A stretch of DNA of 64,000 nucleotides from an uncultured virus (IMG/VR IMGVR_UViG_3300017963_004045) (taxonomy: Duplodnaviria; Heunggongvirae; Uroviricota; Caudoviricetes): IMG/VR virus record IMGVR_UViG_3300017963_004045; one strand, given 5' to 3'. Position numbers and translations under genes: made by a program. Below, one piece after another: positions 1 through 64,000 of the stretch. The notes under the pieces are model-generated. The model did no database searches. It was given only the letters and a program-made list of their open reading frames with translations, and was not told the origin of the DNA. The stretch's first letter is position 1, and each line of letters begins with the position of its first letter.

Positions 1-540
1 GTTGTAAGTTTCAGAAACAATATCATAGACCATCAAGGTAGTTGCATTATAACCCTGAACAACGGTGTCCTCCCATATGCAAGGGGGATAACCATGACAG
101 CCCGATAGCAAAGTAGTTGTATTGGTCGAAATCTTATGCAAGTATAATGCAGAATTGCGAACATTCATGACCATGTAATCCCCATAAATGTCAGAATAAG
201 CAATGGGATAAGTCCCACTATTGTCGAAATCAATTCTCCTGAACTCTTCACCAGAATCCAAATCATAGATGACGAAATCGTATTCATAATAATCGAAATA
301 ACACATGTTGTCATCATATATCGCTGGAAGATAGGTATAGTTGTAATCAGTAATGCGAATCGGGTCTGACATTTCAAAAAGTCCATCATCGACAGTCACA
401 CTGGACTCAGTATCCAATACAATGGTGCTCTCCCGAATACCATAACCGCCAAAGTAGATGAACGCTGGAATAATGAAGCATATTACTATCCCAAACAAAA
501 TCTCTTCCTTGTAGTTCCTAACATCATATTTTCGACTCAT
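1..540 (-). CDS. Membrane-anchored beta-propeller surface protein (class B paralog), runs off the left edge
   Basis: Manual translation from ATG at 540 is open for 180 codons: MSRKYDVRNYKEEILFGIVICFIIPAFIYFGG...DDGLFEMSDPIRI...VIYDLDSGEEF. This matches the N-termini of paralogs (DDDKFTVSDPI, EDGLWEFGEPIRI). Not in the ORF track. Confidence 0.85.
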   Translation of the reverse strand, partial: MSRKYDVRNYKEEILFGIVICFIIPAFIYFGGYGIRESTIVLDTESSVTVDDGLFEMSDPIRITDYNYTYLPAIYDDNMCYFDYYEYDFVIYDLDSGEEFRRIDFDNSGTYPIAYSDIYGDYMVMNVRNSALYLHKISTNTTTLLSGCHGYPPCIWEDTVVQGYNATTLMVYDIVSETYN

Positions 541-1274
541 AGCCAATCACCTTCATCATCCATTTCTCCTTGTTCAATCCACCAATCCTTGAATTCCTCA
601 TCTCCGACTTTGCAACCAAAGTCCTCTGCAATCTCTAATGTTGTCTTATCCTCGAAATTCCACCAAGAATCACTCTGAACCTTATCAAAGTTTATCTTGG
701 GTTCTCTTTCATCTATGACATGATGTAGATTTCTCAATACTGACAAATCGTGTTTGATTTGTGATTTCAACTCTTTCCTATCCTTCGGTATTGGCGACAT
801 CCAATCCCTGTTATATTCCTTAATTTGATTGACAATATGTAGAAAATCATCATATACAATGATGTGGGTATCTTCCCAACCAATGAACACATTCTTTATT
901 CCTTTTGCACGACCCTCAACTACAATCTGCTCACCCTCATCATCGTCCTCCTCAGAGTAATAGGAATAGTTGAAATTACTGGCATTTAAAAGCCACTCTT
1001 CGAGAACTTCCTTTGCATGTTTCTCAAGGGCACTAATATAGGCGTTCTCCTGCATATTGCATATGGAGTTATGAACCTCACTCATTTCACATCCAGAAAT
1101 CTTATTGTCCGCTATCAACCTCTTCTTCTCAGAGTCCTCAACATAACATAGGTCGAACTTCATAGCCCACTCCCAGATATTAGTCCAAGAAGCATCATCT
1201 GGCAAAATCTTAAGGTCGCTCATAAGGTCATCTGTTTTAGCAACAATCCTGAATGTTCTGCTCAAGCCCACCAC
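537..1274 (-). CDS. Hypothetical acidic protein
   Basis: 245-aa ORF; its stop overlaps the downstream ATG; start uncertain. Confidence 0.65.
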   Translation of the reverse strand: MVGLSRTFRIVAKTDDLMSDLKILPDDASWTNIWEWAMKFDLCYVEDSEKKRLIADNKISGCEMSEVHNSICNMQENAYISALEKHAKEVLEEWLLNASNFNYSYYSEEDDDEGEQIVVEGRAKGIKNVFIGWEDTHIIVYDDFLHIVNQIKEYNRDWMSPIPKDRKELKSQIKHDLSVLRNLHHVIDEREPKINFDKVQSDSWWNFEDKTTLEIAEDFGCKVGDEEFKDWWIEQGEMDDEGDWL

Positions 1275-1783
1275 CCCATCATTATCGCCAAATATATCGG
1301 AACGATTCCAACAATCGTTGAAATTGAAATCGCTAAGATGACATTATATCTGGTATCGCCATAATCTTGTTTCATCAGATAATTTGAAGCCTTTAGCATA
1401 ATCTCAAAGGCTATGAAGCCATAGATGAACCATAGAATCGTATCCAAATCTGGATACCACATATAGTAATATCTGAGAACATAGAATGAGAACTGAGTAG
1501 TAAACAAAGCCAGAACACCAATTATAATCCTCTCTCTGGTAGTATCCGCAACGCTGTAGATATAATACCAATGGTCTGTTACTACACCAAATCCAACCAA
1601 AGCCATAAGAATCAAGACATTGACGACCTGAAGTCCGACAAGTGCATTGATATAACCACTTGGAAGGTAAACGCCCACCCTATTGAAGAACAACAAAATT
1701 ATGAAGGCTACCACTGGTAGAAAATAAAAGGGCGTTGGTTTTATCTGTTGAACAGATACTATATCGAAGTCATCTTCTGTCAT
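1262..1783 (-). CDS. Small polytopic membrane protein, paralog of 21720-22256
   Basis: Start MTEDDF after GAGAGG. About 5 hydrophobic segments. MTEDDFDIVSVQQIKPTPFYFLPVV aligns with MANGNDYEIMAVKDVGNKPSAVYFMPVV. Confidence 0.8.
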   Translation of the reverse strand: MTEDDFDIVSVQQIKPTPFYFLPVVAFIILLFFNRVGVYLPSGYINALVGLQVVNVLILMALVGFGVVTDHWYYIYSVADTTRERIIIGVLALFTTQFSFYVLRYYYMWYPDLDTILWFIYGFIAFEIMLKASNYLMKQDYGDTRYNVILAISISTIVGIVPIYLAIMMGWWA

Positions 1784-1798
1784 TTTTGTCCTCTCTTT

Positions 1799-1834
1799 AA
1801 CCGCATTTAGATTACGGCAGTTACGGTTCTGCCC
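1799..1834 (-). ncRNA. Intergenic pseudoknot motif, copy 1
   Basis: GGGCAG-AACCGUAA-CUGCCG-UAAUCUAAAU-GCGGUU; the loop can pair with downstream GCGGUU. Confidence 0.65.
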
Positions 1835-1837
1835 ATG

Positions 1838-1869
1838 AGGAAATAAGAAGAGGTGGGGGCGAACCCCCA
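1838..1869 (-). terminator. Hairpin plus pyrimidine tract
   Basis: UGGGGG-UUCG-CCCCCA followed by CCUCUUCUUAUUUCCU, just after the stop of 1876-2088. Confidence 0.55.
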
Positions 1870-1875
1870 TTTACT

Positions 1876-2088
1876 TCACTCATGTATCTGTGGCGATGGG
1901 ATGTGTCCCATTATGAAGTTGTCATTCTGCCTGACGAATGCTTCCGCTTCACCTACGGTTGCGAAATGTAGGCAGATTTCCATATGTCTCGCATCATTGC
2001 CAGTATGAACGATGCGTGACTTAGCACCCATCGGCATCTTCGCCTGAGCCATCGATGGCATACCCAATATGGTGCATACTTCGACCAT
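1876..2088 (-). CDS. Hypothetical protein (70 aa)
   Basis: GGAGGTG 7 nt before ATG. Confidence 0.7.
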   Translation of the reverse strand: MVEVCTILGMPSMAQAKMPMGAKSRIVHTGNDARHMEICLHFATVGEAEAFVRQNDNFIMGHIPSPQIHE

Positions 2089-2137
2089 GTTTTTTCACCT
2101 CCTTTATGTTTTTCATACTCTTGCTGTCTTTCCATTG

Positions 2138-2177
2138 AACCGCTTTTTATCTGGTATGGGCAGTAGCGGTTCTGCCC
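2138..2177 (-). ncRNA. Intergenic pseudoknot motif, copy 2
   Basis: GGGCAG-AACCGCUA-CUGCCC-AUACCAGAUAAAAA-GCGGUU. Confidence 0.7.
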
Positions 2178-2202
2178 GTTGAGTTTATTGATGAAAACAC
2201 CA

Positions 2203-2358
2203 TTAGAAACTAATGATGACATCATCTTTAGGCTCTATAGTTATCAAGCCTCCTGCCTTACCGTTTGGCAGGGTGCAATGGGAGATAAAACCAGAAATGT
2301 TCGGGTTTCTCGAAATCCCTCTCTTAAGAGCCTCTATCGGTATACATACCTGTGGAAT
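2203..2358 (-). CDS. 51-aa protein with probable ATT start; paralog of 6334-6486
   Basis: GGAGGTG-AAAGAC-ATT; IPQVCIPIEALKRGISRNPNISGFISHCTLPNGKAGGLITIEPKDDVIISF*; not in the ORF track. Confidence 0.75.
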   Translation of the reverse strand: MPQVCIPIEALKRGISRNPNISGFISHCTLPNGKAGGLITIEPKDDVIISF

Positions 2359-2378
2359 GTCTTTCACCTCCTTTCAAT

Positions 2379-2528
2379 TTATGTCAACTCCTGAGTTATA
2401 GCCACATCTGGGCTAAATTTCTTTTGGACTATGAACCTACTGATAGCATGACAGAAATCCAACTGATGATTGTCGTCCTGATTGCAGAACTCCTTAGCCA
2501 TGCCTATCCATTCAGGTAACTCTGACAC
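2379..2528 (-). CDS. Possible 49-aa hypothetical protein
   Basis: Open frame from GTG filling the gap between adjacent genes (SELPEWIGMAKEFC...). Confidence 0.4.
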   Translation of the reverse strand: MSELPEWIGMAKEFCNQDDNHQLDFCHAISRFIVQKKFSPDVAITQELT

Positions 2529-2530
2529 CC

Positions 2531-2920
2531 TCATTCCTCCTTGAATCCTTGACCATATCCGAGTGGTTCTTTCAGTTCCATAGCCATCTCGTATTCTCTT
2601 CCTTCACGCTCTGCAATCATGTCCTCTGCCTTTGACCTATTAATATCGCTCTCCATCTTTACGAGCCATGTGTAATAGTCATCATGCTCAATCAGATGGT
2701 CAAGGGCAATCTTACAGGCGACATACTTATCATCAGTGTGCTCCATCTCGACCTTGATGCCCATCCTTAGTTGGTGCATATCAATTGAATCACAACTGTC
2801 CTTGCCATGAGTCTGGACATGCTTGTGGAATAAGCCCTGTCTGTATATCCCCATACCCGCATTTGTGAACTTCCGAACTGCATCGCACATATTCCTTTCC
2901 TCACGATAGTCATCAGCCAT
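2531..2920 (-). CDS. DUF5661-like protein
   Basis: QLRMGIKVEMEH...KIALDHLIEHDDYYTWL motif typical of this virus-associated family (recognised by eye). Confidence 0.7.
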   Translation of the reverse strand: MADDYREERNMCDAVRKFTNAGMGIYRQGLFHKHVQTHGKDSCDSIDMHQLRMGIKVEMEHTDDKYVACKIALDHLIEHDDYYTWLVKMESDINRSKAEDMIAEREGREYEMAMELKEPLGYGQGFKEE

Positions 2921-3147
2921 CAGAATCCAGCCTCCTTCAGTATTTTGTCAATCTCTGGATAGGAATGTGTTCCAAAGGAATGGAATCGCTTCTGTTCCTC
3001 TGCAAGTTTCCGAATCTTCTGGAGAGCCTGACCTCTTTTCTGGCACTCAATGTCATCAAGGTCGCACTCGTCCTCGAAACCCATCTTGCCCCTCATCTTC
3101 TTGATTCTGGTATCCTTTCTCTTCGCTCCGTTGGTCATTCTCCACAC
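2920..3147 (-). CDS. Hypothetical protein
   Basis: Tightly packed in the minus-strand operon. Confidence 0.55.
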   Translation of the reverse strand: MWRMTNGAKRKDTRIKKMRGKMGFEDECDLDDIECQKRGQALQKIRKLAEEQKRFHSFGTHSYPEIDKILKEAGF

Positions 3148-3458
3148 TCCTCTCCGTTGATAAATATGTCAACGCCATGCCTCTGTCCACTAAATTCAAT
3201 AATCTGTCTGAAGTCAGGCAAATTCTCCATTTTTCTCTCCTTCCCAAGCCAAGCGGGGTCATGATAGGCTACAACCTTCGGATTCTCAGGGTCAGACTGT
3301 CTTTCTGGTATGACAAGGCAACTGCGATACATGGGATAGAATCTGTCACCATCTTCATAGTGGAAATGGTGTGCCAAATCGCATATCAATCTTCCTGTGC
3401 GAAGTCCAGCCTCGTGCCAATCTCTCCTCAAATCCTCAAAGGTGTAGTCCTCTGGCAT
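3135..3458 (-). CDS. Hypothetical protein
   Basis: GGGGGATG SD-like site; operon packing. Confidence 0.65.
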   Translation of the reverse strand: MPEDYTFEDLRRDWHEAGLRTGRLICDLAHHFHYEDGDRFYPMYRSCLVIPERQSDPENPKVVAYHDPAWLGKERKMENLPDFRQIIEFSGQRHGVDIFINGEECGE

Positions 3459-3459
3459 G

Positions 3460-3678
3460 TCATCCCCCCGAAACGCACTTCTCGAATGCCCTCATCTGAT
3501 GAGCCTCATCCGTCAAACAAGCATTCACCTTTCTCTGTAGGTTCTCTTTAAGGTCACAAGCCCAAGTGAGACCATGCTGATGGCAATTATGATTGGCTAT
3601 CACCTGCTCGGCATAGAATCTATCGCAATCTTCCATCTGAGCCAACAGGTTCGGTAGCATGACCTCACAATCAGTCAC
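3460..3678 (-). CDS. Cys-rich hypothetical protein
   Basis: 72 aa, 6 Cys, operon packing. Confidence 0.55.
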   Translation of the reverse strand: MTDCEVMLPNLLAQMEDCDRFYAEQVIANHNCHQHGLTWACDLKENLQRKVNACLTDEAHQMRAFEKCVSGG

Positions 3679-4082
3679 TATATCACCCTCACGAGAACAT
3701 CATATGTTGCAATCAAATTCGGAGAAGCACCAATCTGGAACTCCAATGTATATTCTCCACGAACCAGTGCCTTAAAAGTCCATATCTCATACGGTCTCCC
3801 TGAGATATTAACACCCGTTGAAGTATTCCACTGGAAGGAACTAATCAACTCACCTTGATTGACAAGTTCCCATTGAGGTGGACTCGTCCTTTCTGGCAGG
3901 ACAATGGATACGGTCTCGTTGTAATTAACCGAGATTTGTTCCTGCGGTGCAGTCGTAATGAACGGAGAGGGTATCGGCTGATACAGATACATATATGTCA
4001 TCACAATCAAAGCAACGACAACAACGGCTGTAACTCCCTTCCAATCAGTGCATTTCTCTGGTGGGCATCTATCATTCACCAT
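3678..4082 (-). CDS. Membrane-anchored chagasin/I42-like protease inhibitor domain protein
   Basis: N-terminal TM, then ISV..ETVSIVLPE..W...G.PYEIWTFKALVRGEYTLEF pattern of I42 Ig-like inhibitors. Confidence 0.6.
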   Translation of the reverse strand: MVNDRCPPEKCTDWKGVTAVVVVALIVMTYMYLYQPIPSPFITTAPQEQISVNYNETVSIVLPERTSPPQWELVNQGELISSFQWNTSTGVNISGRPYEIWTFKALVRGEYTLEFQIGASPNLIATYDVLVRVI

Positions 4083-4786
4083 ATCGCCTCCTTTAACATA
4101 GGTTGAAGTTGTTCAGGTTCTAAATTAGGGGGAAGAGTTACCTTCTGGCGTTTGAGGGCAACAATCTTACGATTAGCCTCGTCCTGCCAAAAACCCACCC
4201 TGCCTCGACCCTCGCTCTTCCATAGGTCTGGTCTGAACAATGGGTAATAGTCACGACCAATGTTTTCCTCCTTGAGTTCGTCCCAATCAGAAGGGTCTGC
4301 TCTATCCCTGCCCCTTCTTATTATGAAACGACCTCCGTAGAGGTCACTACTGGTCACATTCGCCGAGACTCTCATATTGTCCATGACATCGTTGATTGTC
4401 TCATTGAAATCAACCCAGTCATACCAATTGAGAACTCTGCCTCTCCTCTGCCTTTCGCCAGATGGAGTAAGTCTTGGGGATAAATTATATCCATAATCGT
4501 CAACGAAATCATAAGTGAGTCTGCACCTAAGAAGGTCAATTCTTGTAGTATCGGTCTGAACATTACACTCTATACCTCTCTTTTCCAATTCCCTATCAAG
4601 TTTGGTAACGAACCTTCTCATTTCATGTGGCTTCATTATCAAGCAAACCTCATCATATGGATGGAAATCTGGATTGATTTTCCTCATAAGTGCCAGTCTG
4701 CGTCCAGTGAGACTCCTCTGCTCTTCAGGATACTTGAACTTGCACTTTCTAACACTCGTTACTTTTACTATGACACCACCCCACAT
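4076..4786 (-). CDS. Hypothetical basic protein
   Basis: 236-aa ORF; start uncertain. Confidence 0.7.
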   Translation of the reverse strand: MWGGVIVKVTSVRKCKFKYPEEQRSLTGRRLALMRKINPDFHPYDEVCLIMKPHEMRRFVTKLDRELEKRGIECNVQTDTTRIDLLRCRLTYDFVDDYGYNLSPRLTPSGERQRRGRVLNWYDWVDFNETINDVMDNMRVSANVTSSDLYGGRFIIRRGRDRADPSDWDELKEENIGRDYYPLFRPDLWKSEGRGRVGFWQDEANRKIVALKRQKVTLPPNLEPEQLQPMLKEAIW

Positions 4787-5577
4787 GCCTCGATGTCCTT
4801 CTTAGCGAGTTCTTGCATTCTATCTATGAAGTCATCAATCTCATATCCAGCGTTGAATATCGCTTCATAAACATCATCGTGTCTCCTGAACGCCATATCA
4901 ACACCAGTCTCTTCCAAGAAATCCCTAACAGAGTTTGTAACTTGTATGGATACTGGCTCAGTATCACTGCCATACATCTCCAAATCCCCAGTCCAACCGC
5001 AACAGTCACACTTCTTGCTCGGCATATAATTGAAAGAGCCATAGTGAGTGTAGGTCGCAAGACCCCCACAAGCAGGGCACTCAACCTTAGAGACTATAAG
5101 TTCACTATCTATGTATTGCAGACCTGTTAAATGACGAGTATTCTGGACACCAAAATCGTCCAAAGCCTCGCCTATGCTATGGATGACCTTTACAGCCTCG
5201 TCTGATATGTCCTTCTTATCGAGTTTTCTTTTAGCAACCTTCAGCCTACCCTTCACAGGCTTACTTCTCGTCTGGATGTCCTCGAAATACATCTTCTCAA
5301 ACTCCCAGATACGGACATCAAACTCAGTGGGAGATTCAACCTCCAGATAATGCACAAGATTGGGATTCTCATGCTCATGAATTGGATTAAGTAATTGGGA
5401 AACGACCTTGACATTAAGATTAGATTCAAACTTAACTGGCTTATCTTTTCCCCAGAACTGACATGAGACAATATTACCATCTCGTTCACACTGTTCTTCC
5501 TTGACGATGCACACACTATTGAAACGGAATTCCCCGTCTACTGCATCGCAGTCTCTTTTGGTAATTTTTGTTCCCAT
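4768..5577 (-). CDS. Zinc-ribbon-containing hypothetical protein
   Basis: Start MGTKIT after AGGAGG; CPACG...CDCCG. Confidence 0.7.
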   Translation of the reverse strand: MGTKITKRDCDAVDGEFRFNSVCIVKEEQCERDGNIVSCQFWGKDKPVKFESNLNVKVVSQLLNPIHEHENPNLVHYLEVESPTEFDVRIWEFEKMYFEDIQTRSKPVKGRLKVAKRKLDKKDISDEAVKVIHSIGEALDDFGVQNTRHLTGLQYIDSELIVSKVECPACGGLATYTHYGSFNYMPSKKCDCCGWTGDLEMYGSDTEPVSIQVTNSVRDFLEETGVDMAFRRHDDVYEAIFNAGYEIDDFIDRMQELAKKDIEACGVVS

Positions 5578-5585
5578 GTTTCCTC

Positions 5586-5912
5586 CTACGAAGGCACTCC
5601 ATAACCCACCAGATACCCGCCCCTTGCAACGAAGCAAGGGTGCGGGAAACTGTGTGGTCTTACGGATTCTGCCTTCGGCAACCGAAGAGCAATCTCGAAC
5701 TGTCCACCCTCTCCCAAGCCACTTCTGGGTTCTACTACGAGGACTTCCCAATCAGGGATTTCATCCCCAATTTCGGCATGTCCACCAATCCAGATGTTCG
5801 TATCATCATCAGATTCGATGTCCAGACTACCGCCTCCCCGACAAAAGGCATCGATTTGCTTTCGATACCTCTCTTCGAGAGAGCGTGGCACTTCATTGTT
5901 CAGACTGCTCAC
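5586..5912 (-). CDS. Hypothetical protein
   Basis: 108-aa ORF in the operon. Confidence 0.55.
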   Translation of the reverse strand: MSSLNNEVPRSLEERYRKQIDAFCRGGGSLDIESDDDTNIWIGGHAEIGDEIPDWEVLVVEPRSGLGEGGQFEIALRLPKAESVRPHSFPHPCFVARGGYLVGYGVPS

Positions 5913-5918
5913 TCTCGG

Positions 5919-6218
5919 TTATTTCTTCTTTTTCTTGGTAGTTGCTCTTGCAGATTTCGACTTTGGTTTCTTGACGACACACTTATCGCCAACGAGATTT
6001 CCACCGAAGCGTTCACAGGTCATCTTGTGGTAGTCTTTGTCCTGTATCTTGTTCATCATGTCCCGAATCCTGACAGCCTGTGGACGGTTTTCCCTGTCCC
6101 AGTTCTCTTTGTCAAGTTGGGTGCAACTGCCATCGATACAGCCGTAGACCTTCAGTGTCGCCCCTTCCTTGTGCTGGATAGGGTCGAATCTCAGCGTTGG
6201 CGTTCCTTCTTTGTCCAT
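5919..6218 (-). CDS. Hypothetical protein with Cys pairs and Lys-rich tail
   Basis: GGAGGTA SD; C-terminal KKPKSKSARATTKKKKK. Confidence 0.7.
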   Translation of the reverse strand: MDKEGTPTLRFDPIQHKEGATLKVYGCIDGSCTQLDKENWDRENRPQAVRIRDMMNKIQDKDYHKMTCERFGGNLVGDKCVVKKPKSKSARATTKKKKK

Positions 6219-6253
6219 ATCTTCTACCTCCTTTCAAGTTTTATTCTCCTTTG

Positions 6254-6289
6254 AACCACGATTTGTTCAGGGCAGTTGCGGTTCTGCCC
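6254..6289 (-). ncRNA. Intergenic pseudoknot motif, copy 3
   Basis: GGGCAG-AACCGCAA-CUGCCC-UGAACAAAUC-GUGGUU (G-U compatible change); preceded by hairpin AUGGAGGG-GCAA-CUCUCCAU. Confidence 0.7.
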
Positions 6290-6333
6290 ATTGAGATGGA
6301 GAGTTGCCCCTCCATTATGTATGATAATGTGTA

Positions 6334-6486
6334 TCACAGAGAGATAACAACATCATCACTTGGGTTAATCTGAATCAACCCACCAGTCTGTCCGTTAGGC
6401 AACACGCATTTCGCAATTTGTGGGGACACATTCGGATTCTTTATCGCCCCATCGATTGCCGTTGACGGAATACATATAGATGGTAT
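6334..6486 (-). CDS. 50-aa protein with probable ATA start; paralog of 2203-2358
   Basis: GGAGGTG-AAAAA-ATA; IPSICIPSTAIDGAIKNPNVSPQIAKCVLPNGQTGGLIQINPSDDVVISL*; not in the ORF track. Confidence 0.75.
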   Translation of the reverse strand: MPSICIPSTAIDGAIKNPNVSPQIAKCVLPNGQTGGLIQINPSDDVVISL

Positions 6487-6490
6487 TTTT

Positions 6491-6901
6491 TCACCTCCTT
6501 TCAAATTCTATGTCATAGTATGACTCTAATAGTTCTGCCTTCATCTTCTCCTTCTCTTCACGGCTTTTATCAGAATGATTGTCTACCAGTTCATTTATGT
6601 AGTCTTTTCTCATGCTGTCGAAATTGAAGTCAGATTTGCCAGACTTCATAAGACGCTCCGCTTTCCCAAAACAAGCCTTCCTCTCATCATATGAAAGACC
6701 TCTGGCACATTCCCGAATTACCAATGCCCTCTCATTCGGCATTTGAATCTTCCGAAATCCCTTCTTAGTGCGTAAATCAATTGAGAAAATCTCACCGCCC
6801 TTGATAGCCCATAGACCGCCCTTAACAATCCAAACATCATCAACCTCAGTCAGTTCCGCAGGGGTTATGTCCACTATCTCATCGCTATTTTTCTCAGGCA
6901 T
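6491..6901 (-). CDS. Hypothetical protein containing the PNERA..CA.G..ERK.CF module
   Basis: GAGGTGA SD; internal segment homologous to 16260-16421. Confidence 0.75.
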   Translation of the reverse strand: MPEKNSDEIVDITPAELTEVDDVWIVKGGLWAIKGGEIFSIDLRTKKGFRKIQMPNERALVIRECARGLSYDERKACFGKAERLMKSGKSDFNFDSMRKDYINELVDNHSDKSREEKEKMKAELLESYYDIEFERR

Positions 6902-28006: not shown

Positions 28007-29280
28007 CCTACCAACCCCCAGTATATCAAAATGATTGCAATTACAATCGCACTGACAATGAGACCTATATTGAATCGCTCATTAATCTTCTTAGTGTGTT
28101 CCCAATTATAGAAATACCCCTCTACAAAGAGAAGAACAGCCATAACCAGTATGATAGTAGCAATGTAAATCCAGTTCTCACTTAGAAACTCAGATACCGC
28201 ACCATCTTCCCCGTCTGGTGGTGTCGGGCTTGTAGTGTAAGTGTATGGAACATAGTAAAGGTCGAGTTCGGCAGAATCGCTCTCATGCCTTGCATACGAG
28301 ATGATTCCATCATATAAATCGAAAGTATGAACTCTGTAATCATCGACCACCGAATATATGTTATCCGTATCGATGTCATAAACCTTAAGTGCTTGATTGG
28401 TAGCCAATTCCCTAAACAAAGCCAAATTGCCCCACAAACAGACACCAGAATCGTAATAGAAGTATGGGTTGTCATCGAAGAGTATCGAGGTCTGAGCAGT
28501 AGATATTTCATATATCTCTAAACTGGCATTAGTTGTATCAGGATTCCTTGTTACATAAAGAACACAGTCCTCGTATATGTCACACGAATGGTATGAATCG
28601 GTTGGTGGAGACTCTATGTCTATTATTGTGTCCTCGTCAATGTCATATAGATAATAGGTAGCATCATCCCTGTTGGCAATGACCACATAATCCTCCCATA
28701 TATGCCACTCTTGAGGAGAGTCTATGATTGAAGGCTTAATCTGGAAACTCGTATTAGCCAAAATATCATGGCAGATAAGACCACTGGAATTTTCGTAGAT
28801 TAAAATATTATCATACAATTTCGGATTATTAACTTGGGAATCATAATCATCATGCCAAATTATGTATGTGGTAAGATTATTCAGGAACTTAACCTTAACA
28901 AAGTTTCTGTCAGGTGTAGAATCAGAATATCTCCAGACAACAGTATTGTTCTGTATGAATGGTTCATTCTCATAATCATTTGCGTTGGAAATCATAAGAT
29001 TATTGTCAGTCGAAATATTGTATCCTCTTATGTCATAATGGGTATCAGAGGCTGAAGAGCGATACACTATGATGTCGCCCCAAATGGATGGCTCTCTCTG
29101 TTGCCTCAATCCATCATCGATTAGGACTTCATCCCCCAGATTGAAATTCAGGGTAGCCCCAGTTTGTGCATTCATTCTCTGCTCTTCAATGATAGGATTG
29201 ACTATAATAATAGCCAATAGGAATACAGCCAATGCTATGATTATTACCCTCATTCCTGCTCTCGTGTCTCCATCCGTCAT
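28003..29280 (-). CDS. Beta-propeller surface protein, class A
   Basis: QREPSIWGDIIVY...DIRGYNI; two C-terminal TMs. Confidence 0.85.
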   Translation of the reverse strand: MTDGDTRAGMRVIIIALAVFLLAIIIVNPIIEEQRMNAQTGATLNFNLGDEVLIDDGLRQQREPSIWGDIIVYRSSASDTHYDIRGYNISTDNNLMISNANDYENEPFIQNNTVVWRYSDSTPDRNFVKVKFLNNLTTYIIWHDDYDSQVNNPKLYDNILIYENSSGLICHDILANTSFQIKPSIIDSPQEWHIWEDYVVIANRDDATYYLYDIDEDTIIDIESPPTDSYHSCDIYEDCVLYVTRNPDTTNASLEIYEISTAQTSILFDDNPYFYYDSGVCLWGNLALFRELATNQALKVYDIDTDNIYSVVDDYRVHTFDLYDGIISYARHESDSAELDLYYVPYTYTTSPTPPDGEDGAVSEFLSENWIYIATIILVMAVLLFVEGYFYNWEHTKKINERFNIGLIVSAIVIAIILIYWGLVG

Positions 29281-29300
29281 GGTATCGACCTCGTTTTTTT

Positions 29301-29336
29301 AACCGCTTTTACTCAAGGGTTGTTGCGGTTCAACCC
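29301..29336 (-). ncRNA. Intergenic pseudoknot motif, copy 4
   Basis: GGGUUG-AACCGCAA-CAACCC-UUGAGUAAAA-GCGGUU; two compensatory stem changes relative to copies 1-3. Confidence 0.7.
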
Positions 29337-29344
29337 ATTCTGAT

Positions 29345-29384
29345 AGGGAAATTAAAGGGAAAGGGAAGGGGCTTTACGCCCCTC
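29345..29384 (-). terminator. Hairpin plus pyrimidine tract
   Basis: GAGGGGC-GUAAA-GCCCCUU-CCCUUUCCCUUUAAUUUCCC. Confidence 0.55.
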
Positions 29385-29406: not shown

Positions 29407-30072
29407 CTAAGTCTCTGGGAAGAGTTCTTTCCTCGTCCTATATATCGATAGGAACATGAGGATAGCACTTCCAATCATCAGGATATAGCCCAGAGCAGGG
29501 TTTCCCGACACTACAGAGCCAGTCGGCAGTTCCATCAGAGCACCATCTTCCATCAAGAACTTCAATTGTAGGTGGCTAAGGAACAAGTCCCAAGCATACC
29601 AGAAGTATAGGATGGCAACGATGATGAAGATGACCATCAACCACAGAAGCCATCTCTTTGGGGTCATGAATGCTATTCCCAACATCATGATTCCAGAGAT
29701 GAATGTAAATGCCAGTGTAACGGGGTATATGTATTGAGTCACTGCATCTGCTGGAAGAACGGTCACATTCTCCGAATCTGGAAACAACCAATCCTCAGCA
29801 TTCTCTGTATAATTGAGGTCTGCGTAGTTGATAGAAACCGACTCTGTTAGTTCAGTAGCATTGTCATCTTCGACAGTGAACGACATGCTTAGGTTGACAT
29901 CGAAGTGTCCTGCATTCAGAACGAACTCTGCGTTGCCGACATCTTCTCCTTCATACTCAAGCGGTGCTGTCATTGTCAAAGTCCACAGGGGTAGCAACAG
30001 ACTTGCTATCGCTAAAACCCCTGCGACAAGCATCAGTGGTCTCTTTAGCCTTGTCTCAGCCATAGAAACCAC
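29407..30072 (-). CDS. 4-TM membrane protein
   Basis: LLLPLW after TM1, extracellular loop, three further TMs. Confidence 0.8.
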   Translation of the reverse strand: MVSMAETRLKRPLMLVAGVLAIASLLLPLWTLTMTAPLEYEGEDVGNAEFVLNAGHFDVNLSMSFTVEDDNATELTESVSINYADLNYTENAEDWLFPDSENVTVLPADAVTQYIYPVTLAFTFISGIMMLGIAFMTPKRWLLWLMVIFIIVAILYFWYAWDLFLSHLQLKFLMEDGALMELPTGSVVSGNPALGYILMIGSAILMFLSIYRTRKELFPET

Positions 30073-63859: not shown

Positions 63860-63949
63860 GCGACTCTGGAGGCGGGTGCATCACCGCTTTCCAGCGAAAA
63901 ACGAGGTAAACTCGGACAATTCTAACGAGTGTTAAAGGAGGTGAATTCT

Positions 63950-64000
63950 ATTCCAAAAGAACTGAAAATAAAAAACAAGGCTGAAGCAATAATCATCATG
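63950..64000 (+). CDS. Start of a gene with probable ATT start (partial)
   Basis: GGAGGTG-AATTCT-ATT CCA; IPKELKIKNKAEAIIIM... Confidence 0.4.
   Translation, partial: MPKELKIKNKAEAIIIM

Follow-up and report, generated by a model that had tools for sequence, protein, structure and literature searches.

Initiator tRNA can read AUU and AUA through a mismatch at the third codon position, and methionine is then inserted. In Escherichia coli, the codons AUA, AUC, AUU and CUG are reported to give 1-2% of the AUG level, and infC and pcnB are reported to start at AUU (bioRxiv 10.1101/063800). Initiation-site profiling in Staphylococcus aureus is reported to have located conserved AUU (cvfC1, 61 amino acids) and AUA (ccpN, infC and citZ) starts, all of them with an extended Shine-Dalgarno (SD) sequence; reporters reached about 10% of the AUG level, ccpN gave up to 30% of the AUG signal in rich medium, and the combination of a weak start with an extended SD is presented as a way of holding expression low (PMC13009471). 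Here we describe two small genes, u2 and u3, that appear to share this combination. They lie on a stretch of 64,000 nucleotides (nt) from an uncultured virus (IMG/VR record IMGVR_UViG_3300017963_004045), referred to as the window throughout. We give a probability of roughly 55% to the reading in which u2 and u3 are translated at a low level from near-cognate AUU and AUA codons with the aid of the extended SD, and in which the RNA pseudoknot found behind both genes is a separate intergenic motif.

Both genes are found on the minus strand, within a block of small minus-strand open reading frames (ORFs). The micro-gene u2 (2203-2358) has 51 codons followed by TAA (2203-2205), with ATT at 2356-2358 as its putative start, and u3 (6334-6486) has 50 codons followed by TGA (6334-6336), with ATA at 6484-6486 as its putative start. 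An earlier inspection of the letters, hereafter the original prediction, had described them as two paralogous genes of about 50 amino acids which align end to end, and our translations reproduce this: 28 of 51 residues are identical (about 56%) with one gap, and BLASTP gives an E-value of 8e-19 for this single comparison. Two cysteines, an NPN motif and an LPNG..GGLI motif are kept in both proteins. The nucleotide differences fall on codon positions 1, 2 and 3 in the numbers 22, 13 and 34, and 19 of the residues that are identical between the two proteins are written with different codons. Nonsynonymous divergence (dN) is 0.49-0.56, synonymous divergence (dS) is past saturation by the NG86 method, and the LWL85 method gives a dN/dS of 0.32. 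Because the differences are mostly at third positions and dN/dS is about 0.3, u2 and u3 are read as coding for protein. Judged by these letters, they are diverged paralogous protein-coding genes with an orphan protein of 50 residues as predicted product, and their divergence looks like the product of long purifying selection on a protein, unlike what a chance ORF or a conserved RNA would show. A six-frame search of the window with a hidden Markov model (HMM) finds the micro-protein at u2 and u3 only, the next match having an E-value of 0.36.

The two genes also share the geometry of their starts. The extended SD GAAAGGAGGTGA is found at 2364-2375 for u2, with GGAGGTG at 2365-2371, and at 6491-6502 for u3, with GGAGGTG at 6492-6498, both on the minus strand. 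Between GGAGGTG and ATT-CCA stands AAAGAC in u2, and between GGAGGTG and ATA-CCA stands AAAAA in u3, which agrees with the spacing of 5-6 nt first proposed. Measured from GGAGG, the spacing to ATG is mostly 7-9 nt among the genes of the window (e.g., at sites 2102, 6231, 16435, 20470, 23469 and 32651), and both u2 (8 nt) and u3 (7 nt) carry their near-cognate codon at this normal spacing behind the extended SD. Upstream of these codons the frames are soon closed, by a TGA at 2374-2376 only 5 codons ahead of ATT in u2 (stop-to-stop segment 2373-2206) and by a TAG at 6508-6510, 7 codons ahead of ATA, in u3 (stop-to-stop segment 6507-6337). Within these 5 and 7 open codons there is no properly placed canonical start; the only canonical in-frame codons are a GTG inside GGAGGTG in u2 and a TTG preceding the SD in u3, and their positions are not equivalent.

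These two codons are nevertheless what a conventional annotation would use, with GTG at 2365-2367 giving a protein of 54 amino acids, TTG at 6502-6504 giving one of 56, and ATT and ATA becoming ordinary internal isoleucine codons. Exactly these two ORFs are reported when the cut-off of the ORF listing is lowered to 40 amino acids, which also corrects the earlier statement that neither gene is in the ORF track. GUG and UUG are moreover reported to reach 10-100% of AUG in E. coli, compared with 1-2% for AUU and AUA (bioRxiv 10.1101/063800). However, the GTG of u2 is part of GGAGGTG and has no spacer to an SD, while the TTG of u3 lies upstream of the SD and has none of its own. The two codons do not correspond to each other either, as u3 has no open frame at the position of the GTG and u2 has none at that of the TTG, and the extra residues they would add (MKD and MKGGEK) are alike only where the SD itself is translated. 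The similarity between the two proteins begins exactly at Ile-Pro, and everything that looks like a residue upstream of it is translated SD. We regard initiation at GTG and TTG as unlikely, and consider that translation of u2 and u3 probably does begin at the isoleucine codons AUU and AUA.

In this preferred reading, the initiator tRNA would read AUU in u2 and AUA in u3 and insert methionine, with the 12-nt SD GAAAGGAGGUGA positioning these codons at the spacing normal for the genome. The strong SD would offset the weak codon, so that production of the protein would be low or depend on conditions. In the case of u3 there may be an additional element of coupling, by ribosomes that terminate at the UGA of the upstream gene within the SD: this gene encodes 136 amino acids (6491-6901), and its TGA stop is formed by the last three bases of the u3 SD motif. 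The same arrangement could be taken to mean that u3 is a C-terminal extension of the 136-residue protein, reached, as in prfB, when ribosomes shift by +1 at the UGA inside the SD-like GGAGGUGA or ahead of it, and u3 is indeed in the +1 frame of this gene, whose stop sits in SD-like sequence. For u2, however, such a shift is impossible, as its TGA (2374-2376) is in the micro-gene frame and downstream of the TAA (2379-2381) of the upstream gene. No shift-prone codon of the CUU-U type precedes the stop upstream of u3, and the similarity between the paralogs begins only at the isoleucine codon. Frameshifting is thus highly improbable, close to negligible.

A scan of the window for GGAGG followed after 5-10 nt by ATT, ATA, ATC or CTG and then by at least 40 open codons gave 16 rows. 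Only those at 2371 (u2) and 6498 (u3) are isoleucine-codon sites with almost no upstream frame; the site at 2935 has a short upstream frame and a CTG directly before a real ATG, and the remaining rows lie within longer ORFs. By reading of the SD list, AAAGGAGGTG occurs at five sites in the window, followed by ATG at 2102 and 16435 and by ATT-CCA or ATA-CCA at 2371, 6498 and 63937. The last of these (63937-63952, plus strand) is followed by 6 nt and then ATT-CCA, and its frame stays open past the end of the window at 64000. Upstream, this frame is open for 8 codons (stop at 63923-63925), with GTGs at 63929 and inside the SD as the only canonical alternatives. The site may be another isoleucine-started gene with proline as its second residue.

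That ATT and ATA might be assembly errors, which had been raised against the original prediction at the outset, is contradicted by contigs from other runs, in which the starts are identical. Contigs from runs X1 and X3 (the latter from a different study) span both starts with 0 differing letters, and contigs of 274 nt from runs X4 and X5 cover 6267-6540, including the u3 start, again with 0 differing letters; all are of the same genotype and are not independent lineages. The sole difference reported over 1700-6600 is at 4364, where the window has C and the contigs of X1 and X3 have A, 255 nt from the contig ends. The two codons could also be the remains of ancestral ATGs lost in decaying pseudogenes, as neither gene has a well-placed canonical start and no homologue was found in any search. 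Decay is difficult to reconcile with frames that have stayed open through 50-51 codons while synonymous sites diverged to saturation, with a dN/dS of about 0.3, and with a perfect 12-nt SD at the correct spacing in both copies. Decay would also require that the same base was hit twice independently and that both times a near-cognate codon resulted in a gene otherwise undamaged, which is unlikely in itself. We hold decay to be very unlikely.

The micro-protein has no relative in a word-index search of 5.8 billion clusters, and a scan of IMG/VR with a back-translated pattern gave 91 pattern hits, of which 0 were confirmed. Pfam, PHROGs, NCBIfam and PADLOC gave nothing usable (best phrog_13875, E 0.095), the ESM Atlas gave no usable match, and a sequence search of the PDB returned one match of 17 residues with an E-value of 1.5. 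A HMMER profile search of 1.84 billion cluster representatives gave 11 matches at E ≤0.001, all of which score through multiple short stretches. Six of the 11 were inspected: two are giant repeat proteins, and four look like translated arrays of clustered regularly interspaced short palindromic repeats (CRISPR) with FPLGKTGGLIEA repeats. By eye and from their sequence, we take the two giant repeat proteins to be Calx-beta-like. We rejected the matches as summed noise, the best single stretch in five rescored repeat proteins reaching 2.5-12 bits. The apparent translated CRISPR arrays (P0004, P0006, P0009 and P0011) stand in a public protein collection, and they match the LPNGKAGGLI motif several times over, which leads to misleading whole-sequence E-values.

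The AlphaFold2 model of the micro-protein is a beta-alpha-beta-beta arrangement of low confidence, with a predicted local distance difference test (pLDDT) score of 67.5. Foldseek finds no PDB match to it at E ≤0.001, and the best Z-score of the VIA wide search, 4.2, is not significant. The sequence VCIPIEALKRGI may resemble the swapped-hairpin domain of AbrB, SpoVT and MazE; there is no Pfam family at E ≤1, no match of AbrB/SpoVT type among PDB sequences (E ≤10), and no such chain among the listed Foldseek and VIA rows for this low-confidence model. The idea of an N-terminal-proline tautomerase, in which methionine would be removed before proline, found no support in Pfam or fold searches. That the protein databases lack the micro-protein says little about its rarity, because gene finders may skip proteins without a canonical start. 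Neither the search of 5.8 billion clusters nor that of 1.84 billion representatives returned relatives or the micro-proteins themselves, and genes of the u2/u3 type may escape annotation.

The pseudoknots behind the two genes lie where they had been placed originally, 25-45 nt after the stops, with cores that start at 2177 for u2 (25 nt from the stop) and at 6289 for u3 (44 nt from the stop). The copy behind u2 (PK2, 2138-2177, minus strand) has a first helix, S1, of GGGCAG/CUGCCC and a second helix, S2, of AACCGC/GCGGUU, and the ATG of the next gene (2088) is about 50 nt downstream. The copy behind u3 (PK3, 6254-6289, minus strand) has one G-U pair in its S2 (AACCGC/GUGGUU); the hairpin GGAGGGGCAACUCUCC stands before it, and the next gene has its ATG at 6218. 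A further copy (PK1, 1799-1834, minus strand) follows an unrelated 70-residue ATG gene (1876-2088) and a GC-rich hairpin, and directly after it stand AAAGAGAGG and the ATG (about 1780) of a membrane-protein gene. A pattern of the 20-nt hairpin has 3 matches in the window compared with 0 in 100 shuffles. A covariance model built from these three window copies and one metagenome copy then picked up a fourth in the window, at 29292-29344, which scores 48.9 bits (E 1.4e-10), compared with 13.5 bits for the next match. This copy (PK4, core 29301-29336, minus strand) is new compared with the original prediction. It has an S1 of GGGUUG/CAACCC with two compensatory pairs and lies between a 221-residue gene (29407-30072) and a 425-residue gene (ATG at 29280), with no micro-ORF there.

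The fifth copy is on a metagenome contig (L033), at 2492-2600 on the minus strand, between genes for proteins of 313 and 448 amino acids, the latter a membrane-protein gene. This contig was the only true relative of the pseudoknot among 7 loci from a metagenome scan. Other candidates were rejected: the 26 loci of an exact-core scan of IMG/VR all fall in one coding stretch shared by unrelated phages of a single family or match by chance, the 8 IMG/VR loci of a pattern free in S1 include none with a complementary S1, and the 5 loci of a GTDB genome scan are all chance matches in GC-rich or coding context. Rfam has 0 families at the gathering score over the whole window, and scans of 1750-2220 and 6200-6340 at E ≤10 gave only unrelated weak matches and no known pseudoknot riboswitch or ribozyme family such as preQ1, SAM-II/V, guanidine-III, fluoride or pistol. 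IMES-2 (RF02035) scores 18.5 bits at 6211-6321 against a gathering score of 54.7, with an E-value of 0.0051 that applies to a search of 141 nt only, and the likeness is mainly to the first hairpin (GGCAAC loop), which precedes the pseudoknot. As far as these searches reach, the predicted pseudoknot is an undescribed and narrowly distributed RNA motif, with five copies on two related contigs.

When the five copies are compared, 58 of 60 cells pair over both helices, whereas only 23-45% do so with the partners slid. The five core pairs of S1 (GGCAG/CUGCC) are paired in 25 of 25 cells and the sixth pair in 3 of the 5 copies, while S2 (AACCGY/GYGGUU) is paired in 30 of 30 cells with 3 wobble changes. 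In PK4, the S1 pairs 12-25 and 13-24 are changed on both sides. The variation in S2 is of the G-U/U-G kind only, and such pairs work only in the minus-sense strand. Pairing is thus kept across the copies with compensatory changes, at two pairs in S1 and as wobbles only in S2, and we consider the pseudoknot structure plausible and partly supported, well for S1 and modestly for S2. With one of its helices supported by compensatory changes, it is a small and clean candidate for a novel structured RNA.

The surroundings of the five copies point to their possible role. Four of the five have a GC-rich hairpin and a tract rich in pyrimidines before them, and in three of the five the SD of the next gene is 3-8 nt after the pseudoknot, with a range of 3-45 nt across the copies. 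The GC-rich hairpins at 1849-1869, 6297-6316 and 29355-29375 (minus strand) are followed by pyrimidine tracts (CCUCUUCUUAUUU, UUCCCUUUCCCUUUAAUUU) and precede PK1, PK3 and PK4, respectively. For PK4 the hairpin is GGGGC/GCCCC and the tract is rich in C and U, and the ATG of the 425-residue gene, which opens a run of large ORFs, is 20 nt downstream of the pseudoknot. L033 repeats this order, with a hairpin followed by a pyrimidine tract, the pseudoknot, AAGAGAGG and the ATG of the 448-residue protein, which is membrane-anchored; the WQDYRNGNWDIYAYN-like repeats of this protein resemble those in the first ORF of the window (1-546). In minimum free energy folds of PK1 and of the L033 copy, base pairs between the pyrimidine tract and the SD downstream enclose the pseudoknot, and this could be an anti-SD arrangement or a terminator. 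Because an intergenic position ahead of a gene is the commonest denominator, we read the pseudoknot as part of the leader of the downstream gene. In the preferred reading it is a separate conserved motif of the H type that recurs in the intergenic regions of this lineage, and its likeliest role would be that of a cis-acting leader which affects translation or RNA stability. A scan for sigma-70 promoters and terminators was uninformative, with 17 promoter-like sites where 10.6 are expected. An archaeal, TATA-based reading of the spacers by eye gave inconsistent distances, and a literature search for a pseudoknot motif of archaeal viruses found nothing relevant among the titles listed. In a genome that otherwise offers almost nothing to interpret, the pseudoknot could serve as a marker of units of transcription or translation.

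The original prediction had gone further and joined micro-protein and pseudoknot into one module. As a functional pair, the micro-protein could be an autoregulator, a regulator of all leaders with a pseudoknot, or a toxin with the RNA as its antitoxin. Two of the four pseudoknots in the window do lie 25 and 44 nt behind micro-genes, the u2 and u3 units align from the SD through the pseudoknot, and there are weak, non-significant fold resemblances which include KH domains (Z 2.7-3.3). However, a micro-ORF precedes only two of the five pseudoknot copies, the others following the genes of 70, 221 and 313 (L033) amino acids. The 70-residue ORF before PK1 was tried as a third paralog and rejected (hhalign probability 0.2%), and the micro-protein is absent, by six-frame HMM search, from the 5,037 of 20,899 bases examined on L033. 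Because only two of the five copies follow a micro-gene, we conclude that the pseudoknot is not tied to these genes; it appears to be an independent element and not their private partner. No RNA-binding fold was recovered to favour the module; the structure model is of low confidence and has no significant fold match.

The toxin-antitoxin version of this pair had its model in type III systems, in which the RNA is a tandem repeat array upstream of an endoribonuclease of roughly 170 amino acids. There is a likeness to these ToxIN-like systems in that a protein gene lies beside a pseudoknot-forming RNA on a mobile element. Here, in contrast, a single pseudoknot lies downstream of a protein of 50-51 amino acids, Tandem Repeats Finder (TRF) detects no tandem array in 1700-6600, and none of 8 local proteins matches PADLOC at E ≤1. 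No family of PADLOC, Pfam, PHROGs or NCBIfam was matched, toxin-antitoxin and defence families included, and this part of the earlier proposal fails on the features compared here. We consider a functional pair of any kind to be quite unlikely. An even more doubtful variant has the micro-proteins as trans-acting binders of a new class of leader RNA, held low by the weak start and adjusting translation or stability for each gene that bears such a leader. If it were true, it would amount to a virus-encoded protein-RNA regulon built from an orphan fold of 50 amino acids and specific to a deep-branching element of more than 126 kb.

The element that carries the two genes offers few points of reference. 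Its genes are on the minus strand over the first roughly 52 kb and on the plus strand thereafter, and strand and GC skew switch near 52.5 kb. Pfam matches 4 of 20 large ORFs (PKD domain, CarboxypepD_reg, AAA ATPase and DUF6744) and PHROGs 2 of 24; no terminase, portal or capsid family was matched in these scans of large ORFs, and the window has no tRNAs. The AAA ATPase is closest to that of Acidianus tailed spindle virus (33% identity), and the DUF6744 protein matches only haloarchaeal tailed viruses (22% identity). A search of the collection of 5.8 billion clusters with the DUF6744 protein returned nothing but this protein, from 4 contigs of the element itself, the longest of 126,812 bp, and no locus of a related element was found with a neighbouring protein of 270 amino acids. 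Metagenome runs from sediment and seawater contain the region, and no RNA run was listed for 1700-6600. Within a DUF5661 gene (2531-2920), a stretch of some 35-45 nt at 2726-2773 matches many unrelated contigs at 80-95% in all four runs; it appears to be the conserved core of the DUF5661 domain family and not specific to the element. From these similarities, the window would belong to a large virus-like element, at least 126.8 kb in length and for the most part wholly uncharacterised, the host of which is possibly archaeal. The SD type GGAGGUGA would fit Firmicutes-like 16S rRNA 3' ends equally. It is also reported as the strong SD of the Pyrococcus aEF1A mRNA (PMC6237735).

Several points weigh against near-cognate initiation combined with a separate pseudoknot motif. 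The conservation of non-AUG codons has n = 2 and could stem from a single ancestor, and a third base that is free to vary gives neither copy a G in roughly (3/4)^2 = 0.56 of cases. In Sulfolobus, the factor aIF1 reportedly selects against starts that are not canonical (PMC6237735). Which proofreading factor applies, IF3 or aIF1, depends on the host, and while the precedents are bacterial, the few similarities of the element are archaeal-viral. For the pseudoknot, 24 of 500 shuffles reach the observed covariation, the changes in S2 are all wobbles, none of them doubly compensatory, and the five copies are all close relatives. A functional link with the micro-protein would be compatible with the occurrence of the pseudoknot away from the micro-genes.

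With regard to the starts, the original prediction is partly supported. ATT and ATA are the only well-placed starts and have a published parallel, and an isoleucine codon is present in two of two paralogs despite saturated dS, in a comparison of two sequences from one genome. Because the synonymous sites are saturated, each copy had ample chance of becoming ATG, and neither did. Selection for a weak start is nevertheless only suggestive, because n = 2 and the copies share an ancestor, and it is not statistically established; we see the selective retention of a weak isoleucine start as a reasonable but thin proposal.

Our results do not overturn the current understanding of initiation or of leader RNAs, and their value is an annotation lesson together with two small elements that can be tested. 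For the pseudoknot, the closest likeness is to the leader pseudoknots of the preQ1-I, SAM-II and guanidine-III riboswitches and the T4 gene 32 operator, which also have a hairpin of 5-6 bp, a loop that pairs 10-14 nt downstream and an A-rich connecting loop, and which resemble the three copies that sit 3-8 nt before an SD. It differs from preQ1-I, SAM-II and guanidine-III in having no Rfam match at gathering score in the window and none at E ≤10 in the focused scans. It also differs from metabolite riboswitches in occurring several times per genome before unrelated genes, more like a phage-specific leader or regulatory signal.

For the starts, the comparison is with cvfC1, ccpN, infC and citZ of S. 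aureus and infC and pcnB of E. coli; in a paper on SPP1, AUU and AUA appear only as entries of a table of codon usage. No sequence relationship connects u2 and u3 to the S. aureus and E. coli genes, and the starts of the micro-genes are putative. They are carried by a virus-like element that is possibly archaeal, their conservation is that of two paralogs in one genome, and they have no known link to autoregulation of the IF3 type. If initiation at AUU and AUA is confirmed, genes of this type would be invisible or mis-started in automatic annotation, and the pairing of weak codon with extended SD that was mapped in Staphylococcus of late would extend to an uncultivated virus-like element that possibly infects archaea. 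What u2 and u3 have in common with the described genes is an isoleucine codon at the position defined by the SD. With the S. aureus genes they also share a very strong extended SD, and reduced, tunable initiation would be expected from the reported behaviour of those genes (PMC13009471). Like cvfC1, which is reported at 61 amino acids, they encode small proteins (PMC13009471). Among relatives of the S. aureus and E. coli genes the non-AUG codon is reported to be kept (PMC13009471; bioRxiv 10.1101/063800), and here both of the two paralogs have one.

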